Assembly: GCA_934271715.1 (NCBI GenBank)
Contig: CAKQRZ010000001.1
Span: 18,819 to 82,818, forward strand
DNA from: an uncultured Alphaproteobacteria bacterium
GTDB taxonomy: Bacteria; Pseudomonadota; Alphaproteobacteria; RF32; CAG-239
Direction of reading: 5' to 3'
Length of the DNA stretch: 64,000 nucleotides
Made by a program: the position numbers and the translations under genes. The first letter of the stretch is position 1; every line of letters starts with the position of its first letter. Below are positions 2,427-56,084 of the stretch, piece by piece. The notes under the pieces were generated by a model. That model saw only the letters and a program-made list of their open reading frames with translations. It ran no database searches and was not told the origin of the DNA.

Positions 2427-2846
2427 CTATAGTGTATAAAATTTTTTTTCGGCAGGAGAAAATGTTTTTGAAGAACAGATTGAATATTTTACTTTTGTCT
2501 GAATAGCTTCAGGCAGAGTGCCAATTATTTTAAATTTTCCATTATTATACAACTCGTTAATTTGTTGCTTTTCAATTTTTTGCATACCGCTTTTACCGCA
2601 ATGAATGCAGCAATTTTTAGTTAATTCTTCAGGCCAATCTTTTGTTGATAACTCTACAACTGAGGCTGCATCATATCTTGCGCGCAGTTTTACTTTTTCT
2701 ACTTTTGAAGTAATGTATAAATATTCCATTGTTTCGGCGTTTACCATTATAATTAAGCGATGCTCTTTATCGCTGCCTATGGGGAAGAGCGCCTTGTAAA
2801 CTTTCCATCTGTCCAATGGAATCATCTTAAATGGCAAATCAATCAA
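2427..2846 (-). CDS. Hypothetical protein. It is the downstream partner of a Panacea-domain gene, overlapping it by 8 nt, and is a candidate toxin.
   Basis: 139-aa ORF that overlaps 2839..3441 by 8 nt in the same orientation. I recognise no family. Confidence 0.4.
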   Translation of the reverse strand: MIDLPFKMIPLDRWKVYKALFPIGSDKEHRLIIMVNAETMEYLYITSKVEKVKLRARYDAASVVELSTKDWPEELTKNCCIHCGKSGMQKIEKQQINELYNNGKFKIIGTLPEAIQTKVKYSICSSKTFSPAEKKFYTL

Positions 2847-3441
2847 TTTTATCTCTTAACGCATTTAAAAAATCTTCGTCCATGGTAAATACATCGTCAT
2901 GCAAGCCTTTTGTTTTAGATTTTTCTAAAGTATCAGGGTTTAGTAAAAAGTCTTTTTCATCCATTAAAAAACGATTTCCATCAACACCCAATTTTTTCTC
3001 AAATTTTTTCCATTCTGGGTAATCATGTGAAATATCACTCAAATCAAATTGGCAGAACTTTCCAAAATTTGAAATAGAAAAATCCAAAGCTTCTTTAAAA
3101 CTTTCTGAAAGTTCATCATCACTTTGTGGTTTAATATAAACAGAATATTCATCAAGACTTTCAACGTCTTTTAATAAATTTGCATCCGAAACTGCTGCAC
3201 ACTCAGGCAATTTATTATTCATAATGTCTTTAGCAGCAGAGGCAACAGGTCCGTTTTTCATTGCGTAATAAGAATCATCAGAAGCTAAGCATCCATAATG
3301 CCGCATATGATAACGATCTGCAAAGAATAAAATTTTTAAAAAATACATAACAGTTTGCTTGCTGTTGTTTGTAGCAGGAGCATGGTTTTGAATATAAAAA
3401 AGCGCTTGCAAAATTTTGCGCATAGAAATTGTATAAGACAT
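2839..3441 (-). CDS. Panacea-domain (DUF4065, SocA-like) antitoxin-like protein
   Basis: The N-terminus KILQALFYIQNHAPATNNSKQTVMYFLKILFFADRYHMRHYGCLASDDSYYAMKNGPVASAAKDIM resembles the DUF4065/Panacea signature (KLQKLLYYAQ...GPV). The C-terminus is acidic. Confidence 0.5.
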   Translation of the reverse strand: MSYTISMRKILQALFYIQNHAPATNNSKQTVMYFLKILFFADRYHMRHYGCLASDDSYYAMKNGPVASAAKDIMNNKLPECAAVSDANLLKDVESLDEYSVYIKPQSDDELSESFKEALDFSISNFGKFCQFDLSDISHDYPEWKKFEKKLGVDGNRFLMDEKDFLLNPDTLEKSKTKGLHDDVFTMDEDFLNALRDKID

Positions 3442-3522: not shown

Positions 3523-4308
3523 TTATTCCATTTCTACAGTAACTGAGCAGCTTTCGGTTGCGCCTGTGCATTTTTTGCAAACTTCATTGATTTGCTGAGG
3601 GGTAATGCTTGTTAAACACTGTTTATTAGAATCCTTGCAATATTTGTCGCCATACCAATAATTTGCGGAGTCATTATTACCTTTGCCGGAGCGCCATACA
3701 CCGGTAAATCTGATAAAGCTGTGCAATGGCGTAAAAACATTAGCCATGATTTCTTCGCAGAATTTTGAAGAAAATGCCGGAGTTGTGGCAGCTCCGTCTG
3801 CGTCATAGTTTGCACCGCCTATTTCTATGCTGAATACAACTCTGTTCCAGCGGGAAAATAAAGCGCTGTTGTTGCCGTAAGCATCTAAAAAAGATGTGTT
3901 GTGATATGCGGCGGCGTTTTGTTCTATAGGCCAATTATCAGGGACTAAGCCTAAGGCTTGTATGGTATCAGCTATGCCGTATACATCGCCTCCGGAATTT
4001 AGTTTTTTAAAGTCTGAAAGATGTTCTACTAACCCCTGCACAAGCTGGTTATATTCTCCGACTGCCTTGGTTAGCTTAAATTTTTCCATGGCTTTGGAAT
4101 AACCTGCGATTCCGCCGACTGATAATACGCCGATAATCGCCAGAACGCCGAGCATTTCTATCATACTCCGCCCGGATTGAGAATAAGCACTTACTCTGCG
4201 TCCCCGGCACCAGTCATTCTTGGGTTTATCCCAAGAATCTTCTCTCAACCAACACTTATGCAATAATAAGGCTAATTTATTGACTAGGTTAGGGACTCGC
4301 TGCAACAA
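3523..4308 (-). CDS. Type IV pilin-like protein with an A-module 5' region. The pilin frame is open upstream to 4506, and the ATG at 4515-4517 is 2 nt out of frame.
   Basis: Mature N-terminus ...SQSG|RSMIEMLGVLAIIGVLSVGGIAGYSKAMEKFK. The C-terminal Cys-rich tail is CKKCTGATESCSVTVEME. The annotated start at 4308 is a TTG artefact of the ORF track. Confidence 0.75.
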   Translation of the reverse strand: MLQRVPNLVNKLALLLHKCWLREDSWDKPKNDWCRGRRVSAYSQSGRSMIEMLGVLAIIGVLSVGGIAGYSKAMEKFKLTKAVGEYNQLVQGLVEHLSDFKKLNSGGDVYGIADTIQALGLVPDNWPIEQNAAAYHNTSFLDAYGNNSALFSRWNRVVFSIEIGGANYDADGAATTPAFSSKFCEEIMANVFTPLHSFIRFTGVWRSGKGNNDSANYWYGDKYCKDSNKQCLTSITPQQINEVCKKCTGATESCSVTVEME

Positions 4309-4480
4309 GATTCTAGGTACAAGACCTAGAATGACTGGTGCTTGAGGCGCTAGCTTAGTGCCGTCTGTTATTTTAGTTTTTACTGTATTATTTCCGAAAG
4401 TGTTATTTTTTCTACCAAACCCTGCAAAAATGTGCTGAACAGCAGAAAAAGTGCCTTTAATCAGATGTTTAGGGTTTGCA

Positions 4481-4494
4481 GAGAGAGAGAGAGA
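4481..4494. repeat. (GA)7/(CT)7 dinucleotide tract between the A-module ATG and the pilin reading frame
   Basis: Direct reading: gca gagagagagagaga cc. The ATG frame reads MKNKLFKGLSLSLQTLNI* and the pilin frame is shifted by +2. Confidence 0.9.
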
Positions 4495-4553
4495 CCTTTG
4501 AATAGCTTATTTTTCATATTTCTTTCCTCTTAAATTATGTTGTTTACACTCCA

Positions 4554-8201: not shown

Positions 8202-8365
8202 TTTAGCTTTTCCGCCCTTTCATTTAGTTGAGTTGTATATATTACCATACCATGGTTACCATGCAGTGGCTTTTTCCATTAAGGCATTTTTTATAAGCTT
8301 CATCAATTTCCGTCAATGTCATATTTATAAAATATGCAAAATCAAAGCATAGGAAAAGCCGGAAA

Positions 8366-8541
8366 TGTGTAAAAAAAACGACCGTTTAAAAGGGACAGTT
8401 TTTAGGCTGTTTTTAGTAATGTATCACGGTTTGCTGCAAAATGCAATAACATAATAATTTTGCGTTATTTTTTTCATAATTTTGCAACATTTCAGCAGCT
8501 TGTTTTGAGTGTGTAAAAATAACGGTCGTTTTTTTTACACA
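8366..8541 (+). repeat. B-module element bounded by 21-bp perfect inverted repeats (tgtgtaaaaaaaacgaccgtt ... aacggtcgttttttttacaca), copy 1
   Basis: Inverted repeats at 8366-8386 and 8521-8541. It is followed by taataggaggaataagATG and the conserved 18 codons. Similar copies lie at 26687-26862 and 55125-55300; the inverted repeats are identical in all three, while the internal segment diverges. Confidence 0.8.
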
Positions 8542-8557
8542 TAATAGGAGGAATAAG

Positions 8558-10195
8558 ATGTTGAAGAGTATGAATTTTTTAAGAGGAAAGAGCAGGGAAA
8601 GAGTAAGTGGAGGCGGCACTTCCGTTTGCAGCGTCATTCTTCGCCGGTACTCCCAGCTGGAAGTACCATGGCGGAGAATCCATAACGTCATTGCGCATGC
8701 AATGTCAGTATGCGTTGCCGTTGGCAACAAAGTCATGGATACTCGTCTGCCACAGCCTGCGGGGTGTGGCGACAAGTATGACGTTTCGGGTCGGTGCCGG
8801 GGACGAGGGGTTAGTGCATTTAGCACCTTTACTATTAAAGCAATGTCAATATTAGCATTTCTTTGCTTATTCGCAACCGCGGCGGAGGCGAAGATTTGCT
8901 TTTTGCCGGACGGCAGCTGCGGCACTAGTAAAACAACCGGATTTAAGCAGAATCCAAACGGAAGCGGATGTATGTATAAATCGGAAGCTGAAGCCCGAAA
9001 CGGCTTAGGCGCCTGCGAAACCACATATAAGCAAAACATGTGCTATTATCGGCGCTGCAAGACTGAAGACAATAATATATTTGCAGACGAGGCAAGCTGC
9101 AAAAAGAAAGCCAAAGCAGATAATTTAATCTGCGTAAGCTGCGGCGGCTGCTATAAAGTTACGCCGAAAACATGCCCGAGTGGGTACACGGCAGGCTTAA
9201 CCGCCTGCGCAGAAAAAGCAGGCTATACGGCAAGTTATTCAAGCAACGGCTATGTAGGATATAGCGTCTGCGGCAAGTGCAAATATACCATAAAATCATG
9301 TGAAAGCGGCTATACTGTGGGCTTGGCCAGCTGTCCGGAAAAACAAGGTTATACTTCTAACTATTCCAGAAACGGAGTTTCCGGCGAGCAGGTCTGCGGC
9401 AAGTGCGACTACACGGCAAAGAGCTGTGCCGGAGGTTATACAGCGGGTCTGACAAGCTGCAGCGAGCGCCAAGGCTACACAGCAAGTTTAGTCAGCAATG
9501 GCTATGCCGGGGAGTTGGCTTGCGGAAAATGCAGTTATACGGCAAAAAGCTGTGCCGGAGGTTATACAGCAGGTCTGACAAGCTGCAGCGAACGGCGCGG
9601 CTATAATGCAAGCTATGCCAGCAACGGGTATGCCGGTGAGAAAATTTGCGGAAAATGCGACTATACGGCAAGAACTTGCCCAGATGGATATTCTACAAGA
9701 TATAGCAGCGTCAGCGCCTGCGGAAAAACAGGAAGTAACGGCTGGAATTATTATACTAATGGCTATTCAGGGGAAGCTGTGTGCGGGCAATGTAAAAGTA
9801 AAGCCTGTCCTAATGGGTATACTTGTACGTATTCTAGTAATATCAAGGCTCCTTGTAATAAAAGTATGGGATGTCCAGGCGATAGTGGGTATTATATTTA
9901 TGGTGGTATATTGGAACTAGGCTGGAGTAATGGATGTTTTGAGCGAGGGTATTATGTATATGTTATCTCTAATCGTTGCGGAGACGGGGTATGTGTCAGC
10001 AAATATGCAGCACGCACATGTCCTAGTGGTACAATGTTAAGAGATAGTGTAGATAATATTTATATATATTGCCAAAATAAAAATGCTACATCTTTTTGGG
10101 ATAAATATAATTGGTCGGCAAGGGCTGCAAAAGATGCAAACGGAGATACAGTTTGTTCAGGTTCAGAAATATGTATGGAATGCTATAAAAAATAA
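8558..10195 (+). CDS. Cys-rich tandem-repeat secreted protein with a B-module N-terminal extension. The signal-peptide-like MSILAFLCLFATAAEA starts at 8822.
   Basis: The ATG at 8558 (RBS aggagg) reads the conserved MLKSMNFLRGKSRERVSGGG and runs in frame, with no stop, into a signal peptide and five roughly 42-aa repeats of the form K.C..GYTAGLTSC.E..GYTAS..SNGYAGE..CGKC.YTA. At DNA level the repeats have a 126-bp period (9416-9541 and 9542-9667 are near-identical). Confidence 0.6.
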   Translation: MLKSMNFLRGKSRERVSGGGTSVCSVILRRYSQLEVPWRRIHNVIAHAMSVCVAVGNKVMDTRLPQPAGCGDKYDVSGRCRGRGVSAFSTFTIKAMSILAFLCLFATAAEAKICFLPDGSCGTSKTTGFKQNPNGSGCMYKSEAEARNGLGACETTYKQNMCYYRRCKTEDNNIFADEASCKKKAKADNLICVSCGGCYKVTPKTCPSGYTAGLTACAEKAGYTASYSSNGYVGYSVCGKCKYTIKSCESGYTVGLASCPEKQGYTSNYSRNGVSGEQVCGKCDYTAKSCAGGYTAGLTSCSERQGYTASLVSNGYAGELACGKCSYTAKSCAGGYTAGLTSCSERRGYNASYASNGYAGEKICGKCDYTARTCPDGYSTRYSSVSACGKTGSNGWNYYTNGYSGEAVCGQCKSKACPNGYTCTYSSNIKAPCNKSMGCPGDSGYYIYGGILELGWSNGCFERGYYVYVISNRCGDGVCVSKYAARTCPSGTMLRDSVDNIYIYCQNKNATSFWDKYNWSARAAKDANGDTVCSGSEICMECYKK

Positions 10196-25610: not shown

Positions 25611-26339
25611 TTAAAATGTCAATACAACGGCACAGGCATCATCTTTAGCACATCCGGAACAATATTTGTTTATATCAGATAAAGATAATTGATTAAAACA
25701 TTTTTTATCGGCACCGTTGCAATAACTATCCCCATAAAAAGCGACAGCTATAGGAAATATCAAAACATATTTTAAGGATGAGTGTAAAGGAGTTGCTATA
25801 TTTTGCACAAACTTTTCACATAAGCTATGAGAAAAATTTGCAGATACAGATTTTCCATCCTCATTTGTTACCCAGCCGCCTAGGTACATATCAAATACTA
25901 AGTCATTGCTGCGAAGGTAAATATTGAAATAATTGCCTAAATTGTCGTGTAAATATGGCCATTCAGGCGGAAGCAGATTTATATTTCTAAAAAATTCATT
26001 AAAATGTGTGCCATTTTTTTGTTTTTTTATGTATTGCAGGTGTTCTGTTATGCCAAAAAGTATATGAGAATAACCATCAATAGCTTTATTGATTTTGTAT
26101 TGCTCCATAGCTTTGGAATATCCGGCAATCCCGCCCACGCTCAACACGCCGATAATGGCCAGCACGCCAAGCATTTCTATCATACTGCGGCCGGATTGAG
26201 AAAAAGTACCATACCTGCGTCCCCAGCACCCATCATTCTTTGGTTTATCCCAAGAATCTTGTGTGAACCAGCTTTTATTTAATAATAAGGCTAATTTGTT
26301 GACTAGGTTAGAGACTCGTTGCCACAAGATTCTAGGCAC
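25611..26339 (-). CDS. Type IV pilin-like protein with an A-module 5' region. The frame is open upstream to about 26576, and the ATG at 26585-26587 is out of frame.
   Basis: ...YGTFSQSG|RSMIEMLGVLAIIGVLSVGGIAGYSKAMEQYK. The C-terminal tail is CSGCAKDDACAVVLTF. Confidence 0.75.
   Translation of the reverse strand: MPRILWQRVSNLVNKLALLLNKSWFTQDSWDKPKNDGCWGRRYGTFSQSGRSMIEMLGVLAIIGVLSVGGIAGYSKAMEQYKINKAIDGYSHILFGITEHLQYIKKQKNGTHFNEFFRNINLLPPEWPYLHDNLGNYFNIYLRSNDLVFDMYLGGWVTNEDGKSVSANFSHSLCEKFVQNIATPLHSSLKYVLIFPIAVAFYGDSYCNGADKKCFNQLSLSDINKYCSGCAKDDACAVVLTF
26164..26291. repeat. 128-bp inverted repeat, left arm. It is 127/128 identical to 27023-27150 in inverse orientation.
   Basis: The reverse complement of 26164-26291 equals 27023-27150 except for one C/T difference. 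The arm covers the pilin leader/N-terminus coding region of both divergent genes. Confidence 0.9.
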
Positions 26340-26550
26340 AAGGCCTAGAATGACAGGTACTAGAGGCGCAGACTTAGTGTTGGTTAATAGATTGCTTCGC
26401 TTTGCTCGCAGTGACGGCAGAGCAAGAGGCGAGCCTGTTAGTTTTGTTCTTAATGCGTTATTACCGAAAGTATCATTTTTTCTGCCAAATCCTGTAAAAA
26501 CGTGCTGAACGGCAGAAAAAGCGCCTTTAATCAGATGTTCAGGATTTGCA

Positions 26551-26564
26551 GAGAGAGAGAGAGA
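26551..26564. repeat. (GA)7/(CT)7 tract of the A-module
   Basis: Direct reading. The ATG frame reads MKNKQSKGLSLSLQILNI*. Confidence 0.9.
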
Positions 26565-26624
26565 CCTTTGGATTGCTTATTTTTCATCTTTCTTTCCTCT
26601 ATATTTAAGTTATTTTATACCTTT

Positions 26625-26686: not shown

Positions 26687-26862
26687 TGTGTAAAAAAAAC
26701 GACCGTTTAAAATGGACAGTTTTTAGGCTGTTTTTAGTAATGTAGCAGAGGTTGTTAAAATTTGCAATAACTTTTTATATTTGCGATGTTTTTTGCGGTT
26801 TTATAAAAATTTACAGCGTCTTGTTTTGAGTGTGTAAAAATAACGGTCGTTTTTTTTACACA
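26687..26862 (+). repeat. B-module IR-bounded element, copy 2
   Basis: Inverted repeats at 26687-26707 and 26842-26862, followed by taataggaggaataagATG at 26879. Confidence 0.8.
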
Positions 26863-26878
26863 TAATAGGAGGAATAAG

Positions 26879-27760
26879 ATGTTTAAGAGTATAGAATTTT
26901 TAAGAGGAAAGAGCAGGGGGAGAGTAGGTGGATGCGGTGGACTCTCGCCTCTAGCACCAGTCATTCTAGGTCTTGTACATAGAATCCTATTGCAACAAAT
27001 CTCTAACCCAGTCAATAAATTTGCCTTATTATTAAATAAAAGCTGGTTCACACAAGATTCTTGGGATAAACCAAAGAATGATGGGTGTTGGGGACGCAGG
27101 TATGGTACTTTTTCTCAATCCGGCCGCAGTATGATAGAAATGCTTGGCGTATTAGCTATAGTAGCTGTTCTCTCAGTCGGCGGGATTGCTGGATATTCCA
27201 AAGCTATGGAAAAGTGGAAAGAAAATAAAGTCATCGGCGAATACAGTTACTTAATACAGGGAATTATAGAGCATTTGAGCGACTTTGAAAAACTGAAAGA
27301 CGAGGAAGTCCGCTATGATTTATTGCCGACCTTAGCGGCAATGAATTTGCTCCCCGGCAACTGGAAAAATACAGACGAATATGAAGGGCATAAAAATGTA
27401 TCAGATACCTTAGGCAATACTTTGTCTGTTTTCAGCCGCAGCGACAGAGTGGTTATGACTATATTGTTTGGCGCTAGTTCGGTTTCCGAAAGCGGAGATA
27501 CCGTTTCGCAAACTTTTTCCGGACAATTATGCAAAGCATTTTGGCAAAATATTTTAGTTCCCTTACATAATCAAATTTATTATGCAGGAGTTTATCGCAG
27601 TAAATATTATGAGCGTGCAAATTATTATTTTAATGATAAATATTGCGGCGGCAAAAATCAATGCTTCAGTGAAATCAAATTGAATGATATAGAAAGAATA
27701 TGCAGCGCCTGCGCTTCCGGGGAAGAATATTGCGTGCTTACTTGGGAGTTTGATTATTAG
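26879..27760 (+). CDS. Type IV pilin-like protein with a B-module N-terminal extension, in frame
   Basis: MFKSIEFLRGKSRGRVGG...(81 aa)...SQSG|RSMIEMLGVLAIVAVLSVGGIAGYSKAMEKWK. The C-terminal tail is CSACASGEEYCVLTWEFDY. Confidence 0.75.
   Translation: MFKSIEFLRGKSRGRVGGCGGLSPLAPVILGLVHRILLQQISNPVNKFALLLNKSWFTQDSWDKPKNDGCWGRRYGTFSQSGRSMIEMLGVLAIVAVLSVGGIAGYSKAMEKWKENKVIGEYSYLIQGIIEHLSDFEKLKDEEVRYDLLPTLAAMNLLPGNWKNTDEYEGHKNVSDTLGNTLSVFSRSDRVVMTILFGASSVSESGDTVSQTFSGQLCKAFWQNILVPLHNQIYYAGVYRSKYYERANYYFNDKYCGGKNQCFSEIKLNDIERICSACASGEEYCVLTWEFDY
27023..27150. repeat. 128-bp inverted repeat, right arm
   Basis: See 26164-26291. Confidence 0.9.
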
Positions 27761-36468: not shown

Positions 36469-37422
36469 ATGGCAACAGTAAATGATACAGAATTTTCGGA
36501 TATTTATATTATTCCGGATGGCACGGCCTACATTTGGGGGCGTCAGACACCAAGCGGATTGATTCAGGTTCAACCGGATGATTATGATGAATTTTTGCAA
36601 CAAGTTATGAATACATATGACGGTCATAATCCAAGTTATCAAGTAAAATTTAAAGGTTTGAACTACCGTGTTGAAAGAACCGTAACGCTGGAAGGACAGC
36701 AATACTGCGCCCGTAAAATGCCTCACTCTGTGCCGGATATTAACAAACTTGGTATAGAAGAACATTTGCTCAAATACTTAAAATCACTAAGCGGCGCTCC
36801 CGGACTTATTTTGCTTGCCGGTACAACCGGTTCCGGTAAAACCACCACTCTATCAGCTTTGCTGCGTGAATTTTTGATTCGCGACGGCGGCTATGCTTTT
36901 ACGCTGGAAGACCCGGTGGAAATGCCGCTGGACGGCACTTATCATACGGTAAACGGCGAGCTTGGCATTTGCAAACAGATGACGCCTCCGGGAGGTTCTT
37001 GGGAAGCCGGTCTGAAATCAATGCTGCGTTCTAAGCCGCGTTATGTATATCTGGGTGAGATTCGTGACCCTGAAATTGCCTCTGAAGCTTTGCGTGCAGC
37101 TATTTCAGGCCACCTTGTTATGTCCACAATTCACGCCAGCACCGTTACTGATGCTATTCAGTCTATTGTAAAATACGCCGCGGCAACCGGTATTTCCGAA
37201 GAAATGGCCTATGACTTGGTGGGCAACGGTATTTTGGCGGTGCTGCACCAAAGCTTGGTCGGCGTTCCTAAGCGCGCTAAAATTGAATATGTGTTTGCTA
37301 ATCCGGACGGCTCTAAAGGCGACCAAGTGCGCGGTATTATCAAAAGCGGCAAGATGAACTTGTCTACCACGATTGAAACTCAGCGCATTCGTTTGTCACG
37401 CGGCGTGCCGTTGTTTGAATAA
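36469..37422 (+). CDS. PilT/PilU-family secretion ATPase (type IV pilus retraction ATPase-like), short form
   Basis: Walker A GTTGSGKTTT, Asp box TLEDPVE, Walker B YVYLGEIRD and His box HLVMSTIHA. At 317 aa it is shorter than canonical PilT. Confidence 0.65.
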   Translation: MATVNDTEFSDIYIIPDGTAYIWGRQTPSGLIQVQPDDYDEFLQQVMNTYDGHNPSYQVKFKGLNYRVERTVTLEGQQYCARKMPHSVPDINKLGIEEHLLKYLKSLSGAPGLILLAGTTGSGKTTTLSALLREFLIRDGGYAFTLEDPVEMPLDGTYHTVNGELGICKQMTPPGGSWEAGLKSMLRSKPRYVYLGEIRDPEIASEALRAAISGHLVMSTIHASTVTDAIQSIVKYAAATGISEEMAYDLVGNGILAVLHQSLVGVPKRAKIEYVFANPDGSKGDQVRGIIKSGKMNLSTTIETQRIRLSRGVPLFE

Positions 37423-38209: not shown

Positions 38210-38890
38210 CTAAGGCCAGAGATGAATGGAATAGTGCGCCGCACCGCTGCTTTTAGACAATATGTGGCAGCGTTTTTGAATATCGCTCAGTTTGGCGTCG
38301 GCTAAATCTGTATAGTTAAATAGTATAGCATCATTCACCCCTTCTCCAAAATTTTGCCTAAAATTTGATTTCTTAATTTCCAGTGCTACCGGTTGGATTG
38401 CTAAGACTAAATTGCGGCAAAATTCTTCATTATCCTGCGGCAGATAGGCGTCTTTATTAGCCATAAAATATATTTCCATAACATAATATTTACAGTCTTT
38501 CATATTATATTTATGGATTTCTATATGGTTTCCGCTTTTATCATAAATGGCGTTATTTTCAAAAGTTGTTCCCTCCGGCAGATATCCAAGGTCATTAACT
38601 AAATATGTGATATTTTGAAAGTCTCCTAAATTGCTGCCGAGTTTGGGCTTGATTTCTATCATTGCATGAATAAGTTCTGTAATCATATTGCGCTGAATGT
38701 TTGATTTCCACATATTCATAGCTTTAGAATATCCGGCAATCCCTCCAACAGACAGAACAGCTATTATCGCCAATACACCCAGCATTTCTATCATACTTCT
38801 TCCAAAAAAATTTGCGCCTCTGCCGCCAGTCATCCTAGGCCGTGACGCACGGTCTGTGCCTAGGATCTTGTCGCACCAAGGGCGGTGCAA
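38210..38890 (-). CDS. Type IV pilin-like protein with an A-module 5' region. The frame is open upstream to about 39056, and there is an internal in-frame ATG (leader MTGGRGANFFG).
   Basis: ...RPRMTGGRGANFFG|RSMIEMLGVLAIIAVLSVGGIAGYSKAMNMWK. The C-terminus contains Cys. Confidence 0.75.
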   Translation of the reverse strand: MHRPWCDKILGTDRASRPRMTGGRGANFFGRSMIEMLGVLAIIAVLSVGGIAGYSKAMNMWKSNIQRNMITELIHAMIEIKPKLGSNLGDFQNITYLVNDLGYLPEGTTFENNAIYDKSGNHIEIHKYNMKDCKYYVMEIYFMANKDAYLPQDNEEFCRNLVLAIQPVALEIKKSNFRQNFGEGVNDAILFNYTDLADAKLSDIQKRCHILSKSSGAAHYSIHLWP

Positions 38891-39029
38891 ACCCTCTCCC
38901 TCAAGGGGCGAGGTTGTTAGTTTACTTCTTAATGCGTTATTACCGAAAGTGTTATTTTTTCTGCCAAACTCTGTAAAAACGTACTGAACGGCAGAAAAAG
39001 CGCCTTTAATCAGATGTTCAGGATTTGCA

Positions 39030-39045
39030 GAGAGAGAGATAGAGA
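39030..39045. repeat. Interrupted CT/GA tract of an A-module: (GA)5-TA-GAGA, 16 nt
   Basis: gca gagagagagatagaga cc. It is 2 nt longer than the other four copies and is still out of frame. Confidence 0.9.
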
Positions 39046-39105
39046 CCTTTGGATTGCTTATTTTTCATCTTTCTTTCCTCTTATTTTAAGTTATTTTACA
39101 TTTTT

Positions 39106-39135
39106 ATTCTATACCAGCCGCACTCCATAAGTCAA
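39106..39135 (-). promoter_or_regulatory. Sigma70-like promoter of an A-module (TTGACT-N16/18-TAGAAT)
   Basis: Minus strand: TTGACTtatggagtgcggctggtaTAGAAT. Confidence 0.5.
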
Positions 39136-39145
39136 CCATAAAAAA

Positions 39146-39176
39146 GCAAGGATTTTGTCCTTGCTTTTTTTGATAA
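39146..39176. terminator. Bidirectional terminator hairpin
   Basis: aaaagcaaggattttgtccttgctttttt. Confidence 0.6.
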
Positions 39177-39188
39177 AACAGTCTGATT

Positions 39189-39797
39189 CTATTTTCTGCG
39201 GCTGGCAGATGAAGAGCTTGCCTTTTCAGACTTCTTATTAAATTTAAATAAGTTCTCGCTTAATTTTTTATCTTGTTCCGCATCAAATAAAGAAATTGTA
39301 ACTTCAATATTTTGCTGGTCAATAACTTTCCATTGCTTTAAGCGGAACGGCGCATTGTCAAAAATTAAAGTAATCGGCTTAACTCCCGGAGAGTTCGGCA
39401 TTTCTACCGTAACAGAAGTTTGACCGCTGTCTTTATAAAAATCGGTAACTTTCAGATTTTTGCCGTCAAATTTGATTTTGTTGCTCAAAATCATGGTCGC
39501 CGGAATATCTTTATAGTCTATGTTGGTAATTTGATCCAGCTCTTTATCATTATAAATGATATATTCGCCGTTGCCGACAATCAAAAGCGGATCCGGAGCA
39601 GTATATTCCATACGGATTTTGCTTGGCTTTTCAATATAGATTTTGCCTTCGGCCGAACCGCCGTTGCTGGACATCTGCACAAAATTTGCTTCTAAGGTGC
39701 TGATGTTGTTCAAATAGCTTTCAATTTTGCCGAGGTCGGCATTTTCAGCATGAGCAGAACCGGCAATCAGCAGAGCAGCGAACAAAAGTTTTTTCAT
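39189..39797 (-). CDS. lolA: Outer-membrane lipoprotein carrier protein LolA
   Basis: Signal peptide, then LEANFVQMSSNGG...GKIYIEKPSKIRMEY. Confidence 0.7.
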   Translation of the reverse strand: MKKLLFAALLIAGSAHAENADLGKIESYLNNISTLEANFVQMSSNGGSAEGKIYIEKPSKIRMEYTAPDPLLIVGNGEYIIYNDKELDQITNIDYKDIPATMILSNKIKFDGKNLKVTDFYKDSGQTSVTVEMPNSPGVKPITLIFDNAPFRLKQWKVIDQQNIEVTISLFDAEQDKKLSENLFKFNKKSEKASSSSASRRK

Positions 39798-45929: not shown

Positions 45930-46056
45930 TCCAGAACCCTTTATAGAGTAGCTACTGAATGTGTTTTTTCCGAATGTGTGATTTTTTGCGCCGAACTCTG
46001 CAGAAACACGCTGAGCGGCGAAAAATGCGCCTTTAATCAGATGTTTAGGATTTGCA

Positions 46057-46070
46057 GAGAGAGAGAGAGA
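46057..46070. repeat. (GA)7/(CT)7 tract of an A-module
   Basis: Direct reading. The ATG frame reads MKNKLFKGLSLSLQILNI*. The pilin frame reads ...SLSLSANPKHLIKGAFFAAQRVSAEFG... Confidence 0.9.
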
Positions 46071-46251
46071 CCTTTGAATAGCTTATTTTTCATCTTTCTT
46101 TCCTCTTATTTTAAGTTAACTACGACATTTATTTTAACTAAATAAAACCGGAAAGTAAAGATAATTTTGGTATCGTCATGCGTTGTTTTAAGTGTCAGTA
46201 AAAACAGTAAAAGCCTGTCTTTTATAAGACAGGCTTTTAAAAAGGATTTGT

Positions 46252-54177: not shown

Positions 54178-54804
54178 TCATACATTATTATCAAAAAGGA
54201 TTTGAATTAAACAGTAATCGTCTTTGCAGATTTTACAAGCTTCGCTGACTTCCGGCAAATTATAATCTTCTCTTACGCATTCAGCAACAGCATAATCTGC
54301 CGGTCTGGCATTTCCGCAGATTCTATAATCCCAACTGCTGCATGTTCCGCTGCACAATACTATAGTCCAAATAATATCAGTATAAACCGGCAATAAATGG
54401 AATAATTCGCGGCAGTTATATTCGGCTATACTGTTTGGCAATATTTCAAATTGTAAATTTAAACGAGTGTAAATATCATAAGGTTTCATAGTAACAGATA
54501 CTCTGTTTCTAAACAAATCTCTGTTATCATCATCTAACAAGCCTTGAGGCACAATGCCGATTTCTTTTAAGGTGGGCAGAATGTCTTCACTGCGTTTTCC
54601 ATATTGTTTTTCTAATTTATATGTATCTTTGATGTTAAAAATCAGCTCTTCTACTTGCTGAATCCATTTATCTTGCTTCCACTTCTCCATAACCTTGGAA
54701 TAACCGGCGATTCCACCTACTGATAATATACCAACAATCGCCAGAACTCCGAGCATTTCAATCATGCTTCTCCCTAAGAAATTTGCGCTTCTAGCACTCG
54801 TCAT
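54178..54804 (-). CDS. Type IV pilin-like protein with an A-module 5' region. The frame is open upstream to about 55014, and an in-frame ATG gives the short leader MTSARSANFLG.
   Basis: MTSARSANFLG|RSMIEMLGVLAIVGILSVGGIAGYSKVMEKWK. The C-terminal tail is CKICKDDYCLIQILFDNNV. Confidence 0.75.
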   Translation of the reverse strand: MTSARSANFLGRSMIEMLGVLAIVGILSVGGIAGYSKVMEKWKQDKWIQQVEELIFNIKDTYKLEKQYGKRSEDILPTLKEIGIVPQGLLDDDNRDLFRNRVSVTMKPYDIYTRLNLQFEILPNSIAEYNCRELFHLLPVYTDIIWTIVLCSGTCSSWDYRICGNARPADYAVAECVREDYNLPEVSEACKICKDDYCLIQILFDNNV

Positions 54805-54988
54805 ACTAGGCCCTGTGCCTAGTATCTTGTGGCACCAAGGGCGGTGTAATCCATCGCCCCGTGAGGGAGAGGTTATTATTTTTGTTCTTAATGCGTTATT
54901 TCCGAAAGTATCATTTTTTCTGCCAAACCCTGCAAAAACGTGCTGAACAGCAGAAAAAGTGCCTTTAATCAGATGTTCAGGATTTGCA

Positions 54989-55002
54989 GAGAGAGAGAGA
55001 GA
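54989..55002. repeat. (GA)7/(CT)7 tract of an A-module
   Basis: Direct reading. Confidence 0.9.
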
Positions 55003-55062
55003 CCTTTGCTTAGCTTATTTTTCATCTTTCTTTCCTCTTATTTTAAGTTAATTTACATCTTT

Positions 55063-55124: not shown

Positions 55125-55300
55125 TGTGTAAAAAAAACGACCGTTTAAAAGGGACAGTTTTTAGGCTGTTTTTAGTAATGTAACAGAGGTTGCTAAAATT
55201 TGCAATAACTTTTTATATTTGCGATGTTTTTTGCAGATTTGTGAGACTTTTCAGCGTCTTGTTTATAGTGTGTAAAAATAACGGTCGTTTTTTTTACACA
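55125..55300 (+). repeat. B-module IR-bounded element, copy 3
   Basis: Inverted repeats at 55125-55145 and 55280-55300. An internal putative promoter TTGCTA-N18-TATATT lies at 55209-55238. Confidence 0.8.
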
Positions 55301-55316
55301 TAATAGGAGGAATAAG

Positions 55317-56084
55317 ATGTTGAAGAGTATAGAATTTTTAAGAGGAAAGAGCAGGGGAAGAGTAGGTGGATTGCTTCGCTGCACTCGCAATGACGGTGCA
55401 GGTAACGGCGAGGGATTGCACCGCCCTGGGTGCGACAAGATCCTAGGCACAGACTGTGCGTCACGGCCTAGGATGACTGGTGGCAGAGGCGCAAATTACT
55501 TTGGCCGCAGTATGATAGAAATGCTGGGAGTTCTCGCAATTATCGGAGTGCTGAGTGTCGGCGGAATTGCCGGATATTCTAAAGCTATGATGATGTGGAA
55601 AGTTGATAAATGGAGTGCCGGGTTAATTCAAATGATGCAGGAAGCGCAAACTCTGTATTTGAATCAAAAATCATTCGGCGATACTGTGAAAATTATCACT
55701 CCTCAGCTGGTAGATACCGGAGTTATTCCGCAGGGAATGCTGGATGAAAATTACCGCGATATGTTCGGCAATCGGCTTACTGTTTTAACTCGTTATTGGG
55801 ATGTGTTTGGACTTCGCCTGAATGTTTATCATGAAATGCCTGCCGGTAAAGACGCGGTGGAATGCTGTAAAAAGCTATATGAGATGGGACAGCAGTTTCC
55901 CAGCAACTGGGTAGTAGTAACTGAAAATTTCGGCTATTCAGTCTGCGGCAGAGCGGCGCCGGATAGTTATGTGCAGGCGATGGGCTGTCAGCCTTATAGT
56001 TTAGCTAAGGTCGCAGAACTGTGCAAAAATTGCGAAACCAATAACTGCAATATAATATTTTTATTGGATAATACTAAATATTAA
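55317..56084 (+). CDS. Type IV pilin-like protein with a B-module N-terminal extension
   Basis: MLKSIEFLRGKSRGRVGG...RPRMTGGRGANYFG|RSMIEMLGVLAIIGVLSVGGIAGYSKAMMMWK. The C-terminal tail is CKNCETNNCNIIFLLDNTKY. Confidence 0.75.
   Translation: MLKSIEFLRGKSRGRVGGLLRCTRNDGAGNGEGLHRPGCDKILGTDCASRPRMTGGRGANYFGRSMIEMLGVLAIIGVLSVGGIAGYSKAMMMWKVDKWSAGLIQMMQEAQTLYLNQKSFGDTVKIITPQLVDTGVIPQGMLDENYRDMFGNRLTVLTRYWDVFGLRLNVYHEMPAGKDAVECCKKLYEMGQQFPSNWVVVTENFGYSVCGRAAPDSYVQAMGCQPYSLAKVAELCKNCETNNCNIIFLLDNTKY

Follow-up and report, generated by a model that had tools for sequence, protein, structure and literature searches.

The closest known counterparts of the locus described here are hopZ, oipA (hopH), and babA/babB of Helicobacter pylori, which likewise carry a CT unit in the 5ʹ region coding for the signal peptide or leader, a few codons past the ATG. 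The slipped-strand frame logic of these hop genes is also the one that we predict for the gut pilin cassette, and short tracts in H. pylori CT genes are known to give stable expression states (PMC12915409). The cargo differs, being a beta-barrel adhesin in H. pylori and a type IVb-like pilin here. The architecture differs as well: here a portable, conserved cassette is common to up to ~25 genes per genome and is followed by a leader of 60–130 amino acids. Finally, the host in our case is an uncultured gut alphaproteobacterium, and the switch is predicted from sequence.

The opa genes of Neisseria form a multigene family with a conserved 5ʹ end, in which CTCTT pentamer repeats lie in the region coding for the leader peptide. 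The paralogs are independently ON or OFF (mostly OFF), and their switching has been shown experimentally. The gut genes resemble them in forming a multigene family, mostly OFF, whose conserved 5ʹ end has a pyrimidine repeat in the leader, but the unit is a dinucleotide instead of a pentamer and the products are pilins instead of Opa beta-barrels. In Streptococcus gallolyticus pil1, GCAGA repeats in a short upstream frame govern pilus expression, with hairpins downstream (PMC3894217). There a separate leader ORF acts on a terminator, whereas the ON frame of the gut cassette runs on into the pilin.

Two further comparisons concern the interrupting base and the encoded protein. Phase-locked repeats have been engineered in Campylobacter jejuni, where base substitution stops replicative slippage and fixes the gene ON or OFF (PMC8437040). 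Those tracts are designed, multiply interrupted poly-G, whereas the tract considered here has one natural substitution that leaves a (CT)5 run. The pilin-like proteins share 5–13 per cent sequence identity with TcpA (Vibrio cholerae), CofA (ETEC CFA/III), and PilS (Salmonella Typhi). Compared with these three, their predicted leader is several times longer, and their genes are scattered among housekeeping genes, with no pilus operon.

An interrupted CT tract upstream of a pilin-like gene

The DNA analysed here, called the window throughout, is a stretch of 64,000 nt (64 kb) from an uncultured human-gut alphaproteobacterium. It contains five sites with (GA)5 or longer (at 4481, 26551, 39030, 46057, and 54989), and 100 dinucleotide-preserving shuffles gave 0 such matches. 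The original prediction described an interrupted repeat on the + strand at 39030–39045, and direct reading of the sequence, gagagagagatagaga, bears this out. On the minus (coding) strand, the tract begins 24 nt downstream of the ATG at 39068 and has the form (CT)2AT(CT)5, in which C has become A in the third unit. At the interrupting position, 39040, the coding strand has A and the + strand T; orthologs have C. The features of this copy, in order of transcription, are:

39106..39135, minus strand: promoter-like site TTGACT, 18-nt spacer, TAGAAT; 10/12 matches, conserved in the aligned modules
39066..39080, minus strand: Shine–Dalgarno sequence GAGG (39080–39077) and start codon ATG (39068–39066); invariant in 5/5 window copies
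39044–39029 (16 nt), minus (coding) strand: interrupted repeat tract CTCTATCTCTCTCTCT; from the sequence and the module alignment
39018..39068, minus strand: OFF-state reading MKNKQSKGLYLSLCKS and TGA stop (39020–39018); by translation from the ATG at 39068
38801..39028, minus strand: ON-frame leader, consisting of the conserved A-module part ANPEHLIKGAFSAVQYVFTEFGRKNNTFGNN and then the variable linker to the Gly of the predicted cleavage site, G/RSMIE; stop-free and in frame with the pilin

Comparison of the modules places the other four sites in paralogs with shorter tracts:

4480..4493, minus strand: paralog tract (CT)7, OFF, module ATG at 4517
26550..26563, minus strand: paralog tract (CT)7, OFF, module ATG at 26587
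46056..46069, minus strand: paralog tract (CT)7, OFF, module ATG at 46093
54988..55001, minus strand: paralog tract (CT)7, OFF, module ATG at 55025

The tract had been said to be 2 nt longer than those of its four paralogs, and the alignment of the five modules agrees: the copy at 39029–39044 differs from the (CT)7 paralogs by +2 nt and by one C-to-A change.

The order of parts is the same in all five copies, with the promoter followed by GAGG, the ATG (8 nt after GAGG), seven codons, the CT tract, a conserved part of ~100 nt, 100–300 nt of highly variable linker, and GRSMIEMLGVLAIIGVLSVGG. The promoter-like site is sigma-70-like and here lies just downstream of the terminator-like hairpin of LolA. 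Distances from the ATG to the pilin motif are 353, 404, 274, 401, and 260 nt in the five copies, and the pilin is in frame 2 for the four 14-nt copies and in frame 1 for the 16-nt copy. In each of the five, the frame that follows the tract (GCA AAT CCT ...) stays open into the GRSMIEML pilin-like gene, and it is for this reason that we interpret the tract as a translational frame switch. The ON lengths are 12 and 18 nt, whereas at 14 or 16 nt (OFF) a stop follows 18 or 16 codons, respectively. With the observed tract, reading from the ATG at 39068 runs for 16 codons and then meets a stop, so this copy is indeed OFF and out of frame with the pilin, as originally described. In silico, the same copy encodes 286 amino acids with one unit more and 284 with two units fewer, compared with 16 as observed.

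All seventy-two distinct post-tract segments (72/72) are open in the pilin frame and closed in the other two. Variability at the three codon positions of the conserved leader (0.10, 0.16, and 0.16) weakly favours the third position. Constraint on the leader peptide thus appears weak, and in calling the leader coding we rely on its open frame and its frame relation to the pilin and leave substitution patterns aside. An Rfam scan of the window returned two tRNAs and nothing else, so no known riboswitch or leader RNA accounts for the conserved module.

From these parts we propose the following mechanism. The cassette would be a portable 5ʹ unit (promoter, Shine–Dalgarno sequence, ATG, seven codons, (CT)n, and conserved leader) fused in frame to type IVb-like pilin genes. 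Slipped-strand mispairing would alter the number of CT units. With a tract of 12 or 18 nt, translation from the ATG would read through the 60–130-amino-acid leader into the pilin, and with 14 or 16 nt it would end after 16–18 codons. Switching would then take place within populations, and the long leader would be translated and afterwards removed.

The short frame could instead be a leader peptide whose length is set by the repeat and which attenuates transcription downstream, in the manner of S. gallolyticus pil1 and with no translational fusion. The arrangement is exactly that of S. gallolyticus, where a leader ORF containing a repeat precedes a pilus gene and a hairpin lies downstream (PMC3894217); strong hairpins also lie between our tract and the pilin. 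Attenuation, however, needs neither a pilin in the post-tract frame, as found in 52 of the 53 public copies in which the pilin motif was located, nor heterogeneous linkers that never contain a stop. Most copies also have no start codon preceded by a Shine–Dalgarno sequence before the pilin, the scan of 38700–39250 found 0 terminator-like sites, and the ON frame is continuous with the pilin where an attenuator would have a separate leader ORF and an intrinsic terminator. We therefore regard attenuation as quite improbable and retain the frame switch, to whose effect polarity in the OFF state could add.

The downstream protein

The post-tract frame leads into a predicted product that was annotated from its sequence and predicted fold:

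38210..38800, minus strand: predicted mature type IVb-like pilin (RSMIEMLGVLAIIAVLSVGG...), stop codon included

Searches of Pfam and NCBIfam with this protein gave no match above threshold; matches to the Pfam N_methyl model fell below it (E 0.01–0.04). Foldseek returned nothing significant from the PDB. Database relatives number more than 7000, and those with a named source come from Alphaproteobacteria metagenome-assembled genomes (MAGs). Among 92 homologs, G30, E35, and the stretch MLGVLAI are invariant, as are C158 and C208, a candidate disulfide pair in the C-terminal part. The hallmarks of a class III signal are present: a Gly at −1, a Glu at +5, and ~20 N-terminal residues that form a hydrophobic helix. 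Its predicted structure is a pilin fold, in which an antiparallel sheet packs against a long alpha-1 helix. With moderate confidence, we class it as type IVb-like.

The only assembly-type gene seen in the window encodes a T2SSE/PilT-like ATPase (36469–37422). A leader of 60–130 amino acids is far longer than those known from type IV prepilins. Paralogs whose 5ʹ module is a different, repeat-free one and contains a strong AGGAGG nevertheless encode the long leader and the pilin in a single ORF. A literature search found no description of this pilin-like gene family.

The internal ATG and the palindromic linker element

The original prediction also noted an internal in-frame ATG with a short leader and suggested that the copy may be expressed independently of the switch. 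The ATG is present at 38833–38831, in frame, and would give the 11-amino-acid leader MTGGRGANFFG/RSMIEML. If it were used, the pilin (38210–38833) would be made irrespective of the tract and the switch would be irrelevant for this copy. A leader of 11 amino acids ending in Gly is of normal prepilin length. Moreover, the window gene at 179–778 has a classical short leader (MNTANENG/RSMIEML) with AGGAGA 7 nt upstream, so short leaders do occur in the pilin-like family. That gene, with its conventional 8-amino-acid leader, has neither the A-module nor module B, the second cassette described below.

The internal ATG itself is not preceded by a Shine–Dalgarno sequence; AGG directly abuts the ATG, in contrast to the AGGAGA of gene 179–778 and the GAGG of the A-module. 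Folding also places it in a hairpin:

38832..38866, minus strand: hairpin of the palindromic linker element, arms ATCCTAGGC (38866–38858) and GCCTAGGAT (38840–38832)

The minimum free energy is −54.4 kcal/mol (z −2.45 for 156 nt), and the A and T of the internal ATG are paired in the 3ʹ arm of the 9-bp stem. The hairpin belongs to a palindromic element (..AAGATCCTAGGC..GCCTAGGATGACTGG..GGCGCA) that occurs eight times in the window, in pilin linkers only and in both orientations:

38813–38838, 4197–4222, 4326–4351, 26216–26241: palindromic element copies
26345–26370, 26944–26969, 54784–54809, 55468–55493: palindromic element copies, continued

In the copies with module ATGs at 4517 and 26587, the ATG of the element is out of frame, and the paralog at 55317 contains this element too, but its translation begins far upstream, at an ATG preceded by a strong AGGAGG. 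What stands of the earlier suggestion is therefore the existence and frame of the internal ATG. Expression independent of the switch does not fit the missing Shine–Dalgarno sequence, the stem, and the repeat element, and we consider it unlikely.

Linkers are built from the palindromic element in either orientation, yet the reading frame is always open. The palindromes recall the in-frame palindromic elements of Rickettsia.

Orthologs of the locus and origin of the interruption

Gene callers start the product of this locus at a TTG and give it 226 amino acids. In an exact-protein look-up this product was matched, whereas the ATG-started product of 207 amino acids had no match. The 226-amino-acid product is on 8 contigs, and alleles at 94–98 per cent identity (P0002–P0005) are on ~14 further contigs. 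All of the ~20 contigs with the locus encode the 226-amino-acid product, from which it follows that all are OFF.

Comparison with orthologous loci had been proposed as a check on the history of the tract. We aligned nine sequences that share the neighbours nitroreductase, LolA, module, pilin, 197-amino-acid ORF, and PilT-like ATPase. At this same locus, four sequences carry an uninterrupted (CT)8 (L079, L080, L081, L083) and three carry (CT)7 (L082, L084, L085); the interrupted tract is found in the remaining two, the window and L078. L078 is a contig from a Hadza metagenome (coverage 12.8, listed for 2 samples) and represents the same strain as the window, to which it is 100 per cent identical over 6681 nt. 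The interrupted tract is accordingly known from two assemblies and one strain, with one of the 8 contigs of the 226-amino-acid product compared. The other aligned orthologs belong to further strains of the species and are 94–98.4 per cent identical to the window. Because these sister strains carry an uninterrupted (CT)8 or (CT)7, we interpret the interrupted tract as a C-to-A change in a (CT)8 allele. The simplest history would be a (CT)8 allele followed by C-to-A in the third unit in one strain, and the proposed sequence of events, one unit gained and then a point interruption, fits the four (CT)8 and three (CT)7 contigs.

An error of sequencing or assembly had been named as what would refute the original prediction, and in a tract of such low complexity either the TA interruption or the extra 2 nt could in principle have arisen in this way. 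Dinucleotide tracts are liable to length errors, and two assemblies that share a strain are possibly not fully independent. The identical tract was nonetheless recovered in L078, which comes from a separate metagenome assembly, and the 16-nt length is common to four orthologous contigs of other strains. The interruption is, moreover, a substitution, whereas errors in repeats would be errors of length, and interrupted tracts are also found in L039 and L072. An artefact is thus extremely improbable.

The orthologous alleles vary at two other places in the module. One is a 1-nt G indel in the promoter spacer, which is 18 or 17 nt long (alignment column 91, window ~39114). The other is a block in codons 5–6 that reads AATCC or TAAGC (columns 151–154, window ~39055–39051) and matches other paralogs, which suggests gene conversion between modules.

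That ~20 of ~20 contigs of the locus are OFF would also be expected if the copy at 39029–39044 were decaying, either as a first step of pseudogenization or as a silent donor for recombination; the mosaic of AATCC and TAAGC codons among orthologs, with its hint of gene conversion, would suit a donor. Apart from the tract, however, nothing breaks the frame of 284–286 amino acids in strains down to 94 per cent identity. The promoter, Shine–Dalgarno sequence, and ATG are fully conserved, and each copy has its own expression signals, unlike silent cassettes. We judge decay unlikely. The tract at 39029–39044 is instead probably the switch element of a pilin cassette, descended from a (CT)8 OFF allele via C-to-A.

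Tract lengths in public genomes and metagenomes

A pattern search with the module found 36 stretches of species-representative genomes and 41 contigs of a metagenome collection. Except for one bin labelled Bacteroidaceae, the species-representative matches are all from human-gut Alphaproteobacteria MAGs. For the metagenome collection, this general module pattern was substituted for a locus-anchored one (LolA terminator and tract), which had given 0 matches there. The census of 85 copies includes the window, and the collections were not de-duplicated against each other. Tract classes and their states were:

(CT)7: 61/85 copies, OFF
(CT)8: 15/85 copies, OFF
(CT)6: 5/85 copies, ON
interrupted or degenerate: 4/85 copies, OFF

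A perfect (CT)6–8 tract, 24 nt past the ATG, is present in 81/85 copies, and ~94 per cent of copies (80/85) are in the OFF state. Other interrupted or degenerate tracts are those of L039 (CTCTCTTTCTCTCT), L072 (CTCTCTCTATCTCT), and L019 (CTCTCTCC). In L052 (7951–8016), the frame that follows the tract is not that of the pilin.

Contigs L079 and L082 have 0 mismatches over 2686 nt, and the single gap between them is one CT unit. L043 and L057, which have tracts of 14 and 16 nt, are 99.86 per cent identical over 10,427 nt (12 mismatches and 2 gaps). Near-identical contigs that differ at the tract are the signature of a hypermutable repeat. The counterpart of the 46093 copy in another species-level MAG, CAKQDU (L034), has (CT)6 and is ON. 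The locus thus has three of the four defining features of a simple-sequence-repeat contingency locus: a tandem repeat in the 5ʹ coding region, a frame that changes with unit number, and a tract that varies faster than its flanks. The fourth, frequent and reversible switching in a clonal population, is predicted.

Public proteins add to the ON alleles. P0036 and P0048 (with GLSLSANP) start at the module ATG and represent the ON state. In a third ON-state protein, P0073, the sequence GLSLSLSLSANP implies (CT)12; this is double the usual ON length and indicates that tracts can outgrow the 6–8 units of the DNA matches. A search with the leader only gave four truncated ON fragments (P0121–P0124), too few for a census of ON alleles. 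The ON alleles observed are mostly of 6 units, with one of 12. A (CT)9 allele, the ON length one unit above (CT)8, was found neither among the 85 copies nor among the ON-state proteins.

The predominance of (CT)7 (61/85) and the out-of-frame position of all five window copies could also mean that the tract is not a switch at all, with (CT)7 as the functional form and the pilin reached by programmed ribosomal frameshifting or by transcriptional slippage on the CU run. Each of the three coexisting length classes would then call for a shift of its own, −1 at 14 nt, +1 at 16 nt, and none at 12 nt, and programmed frameshifting was rejected on this ground. There is no slippery heptamer, in-frame alleles exist, and near-identical strains differ in tract length, which is unexpected for a conserved recoding site. 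Recoding is therefore very improbable.

Predicted effect of the interruption on slippage

If the tract is a frame switch, as we think, the interruption should act as a partial lock. The substitution shortens the longest perfect run from 8 to 5 units, and that it should lower the slippage rate is a sound prediction. Interrupting a repeat is a standard experimental way to stop slippage and lock phase states (PMC8437040). In H. pylori, oipA copies are reported to stay expressed when they have no more than three CT units, in contrast to those with five or more (PMC12915409). It is on repeat-locking practice and on the short oipA tracts that the predicted reduction in switching rate is based. The lock would be at most partial, as a single gain in the (CT)5 run brings the pilin back into frame (286 amino acids). 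Since (CT)9 was seen nowhere, a lineage at (CT)8 may already stand at a greater distance from (CT)6, the usual ON state. The C-to-A substitution thus keeps the gene OFF and probably makes it harder to turn ON.

The wider set of pilin-like genes

Five A-module copies and three other pilin-like copies are present in the window, and one MAG has ~25 A-modules. One pilin copy (3523–4517) is adjoined by a gene for a SocA/Panacea antitoxin-domain protein (2839–3441). The second cassette, module B, consists of perfect inverted repeats of 21–22 nt (TGTGTAAAAAAAACGACCGTT / AACGGTCGTTTTTTTTACACA) around exactly 134 nt and ends ~17 nt before an AGGAGG-ATG:

26687–26862 and 55125–55300, + strand: module B, preceding pilin-like genes with ATG at 26879 and 55317
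8365–8542: module B, preceding the gene for a 545-amino-acid Cys-rich repeat protein with ATG at 8558

From its sequence, module B looks like an invertible promoter. Its 12/12 sites in the window and the fetched loci share one orientation, and no recombinase was seen in the window. At two places, A and B modules stand back to back ~290 nt apart (26587/26879 and 55025/55317), driving divergent pilin-like genes.

The assembly CAVKTH01 (L002, L006, L007, L012, and others) is labelled ‘Bacteroidaceae bacterium’ and has at least 14 contigs with the alphaproteobacterial module, which suggests a mislabelled or mixed bin. Many of its contigs end exactly at the module, which shows assemblies being fragmented by the repeated cassettes.

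These gut Alphaproteobacteria may possess a large type IVb-like pilin repertoire on two portable 5ʹ cassettes with long, palindrome-built leaders. Nearly all of its members would be OFF, one or a few pilins would be displayed per cell, and the interrupted allele would be a member that has left the switching pool. We find this picture plausible and put it forward tentatively.

Taken alone, the interruption is a small strain-specific mutation and an ordinary variant of a well-known type of switch; the gene family around it is more interesting. The interrupted tract is one data point in an apparently large, undescribed family of contingency genes in human-gut Alphaproteobacteria of a common but uncultured lineage. 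Over evolutionary time, all three states to be expected of a repeat switch are displayed there: tract lengths that change between clones, alleles that are ON or OFF, and a repeat in decay. If the switching is true, the CT-repeat trick of the H. pylori adhesins is used here to vary a pilus repertoire, which would be relevant to the ways in which gut commensals escape immunity or phage. In metagenomes, the tract would then also be a handy marker of within-host population dynamics.
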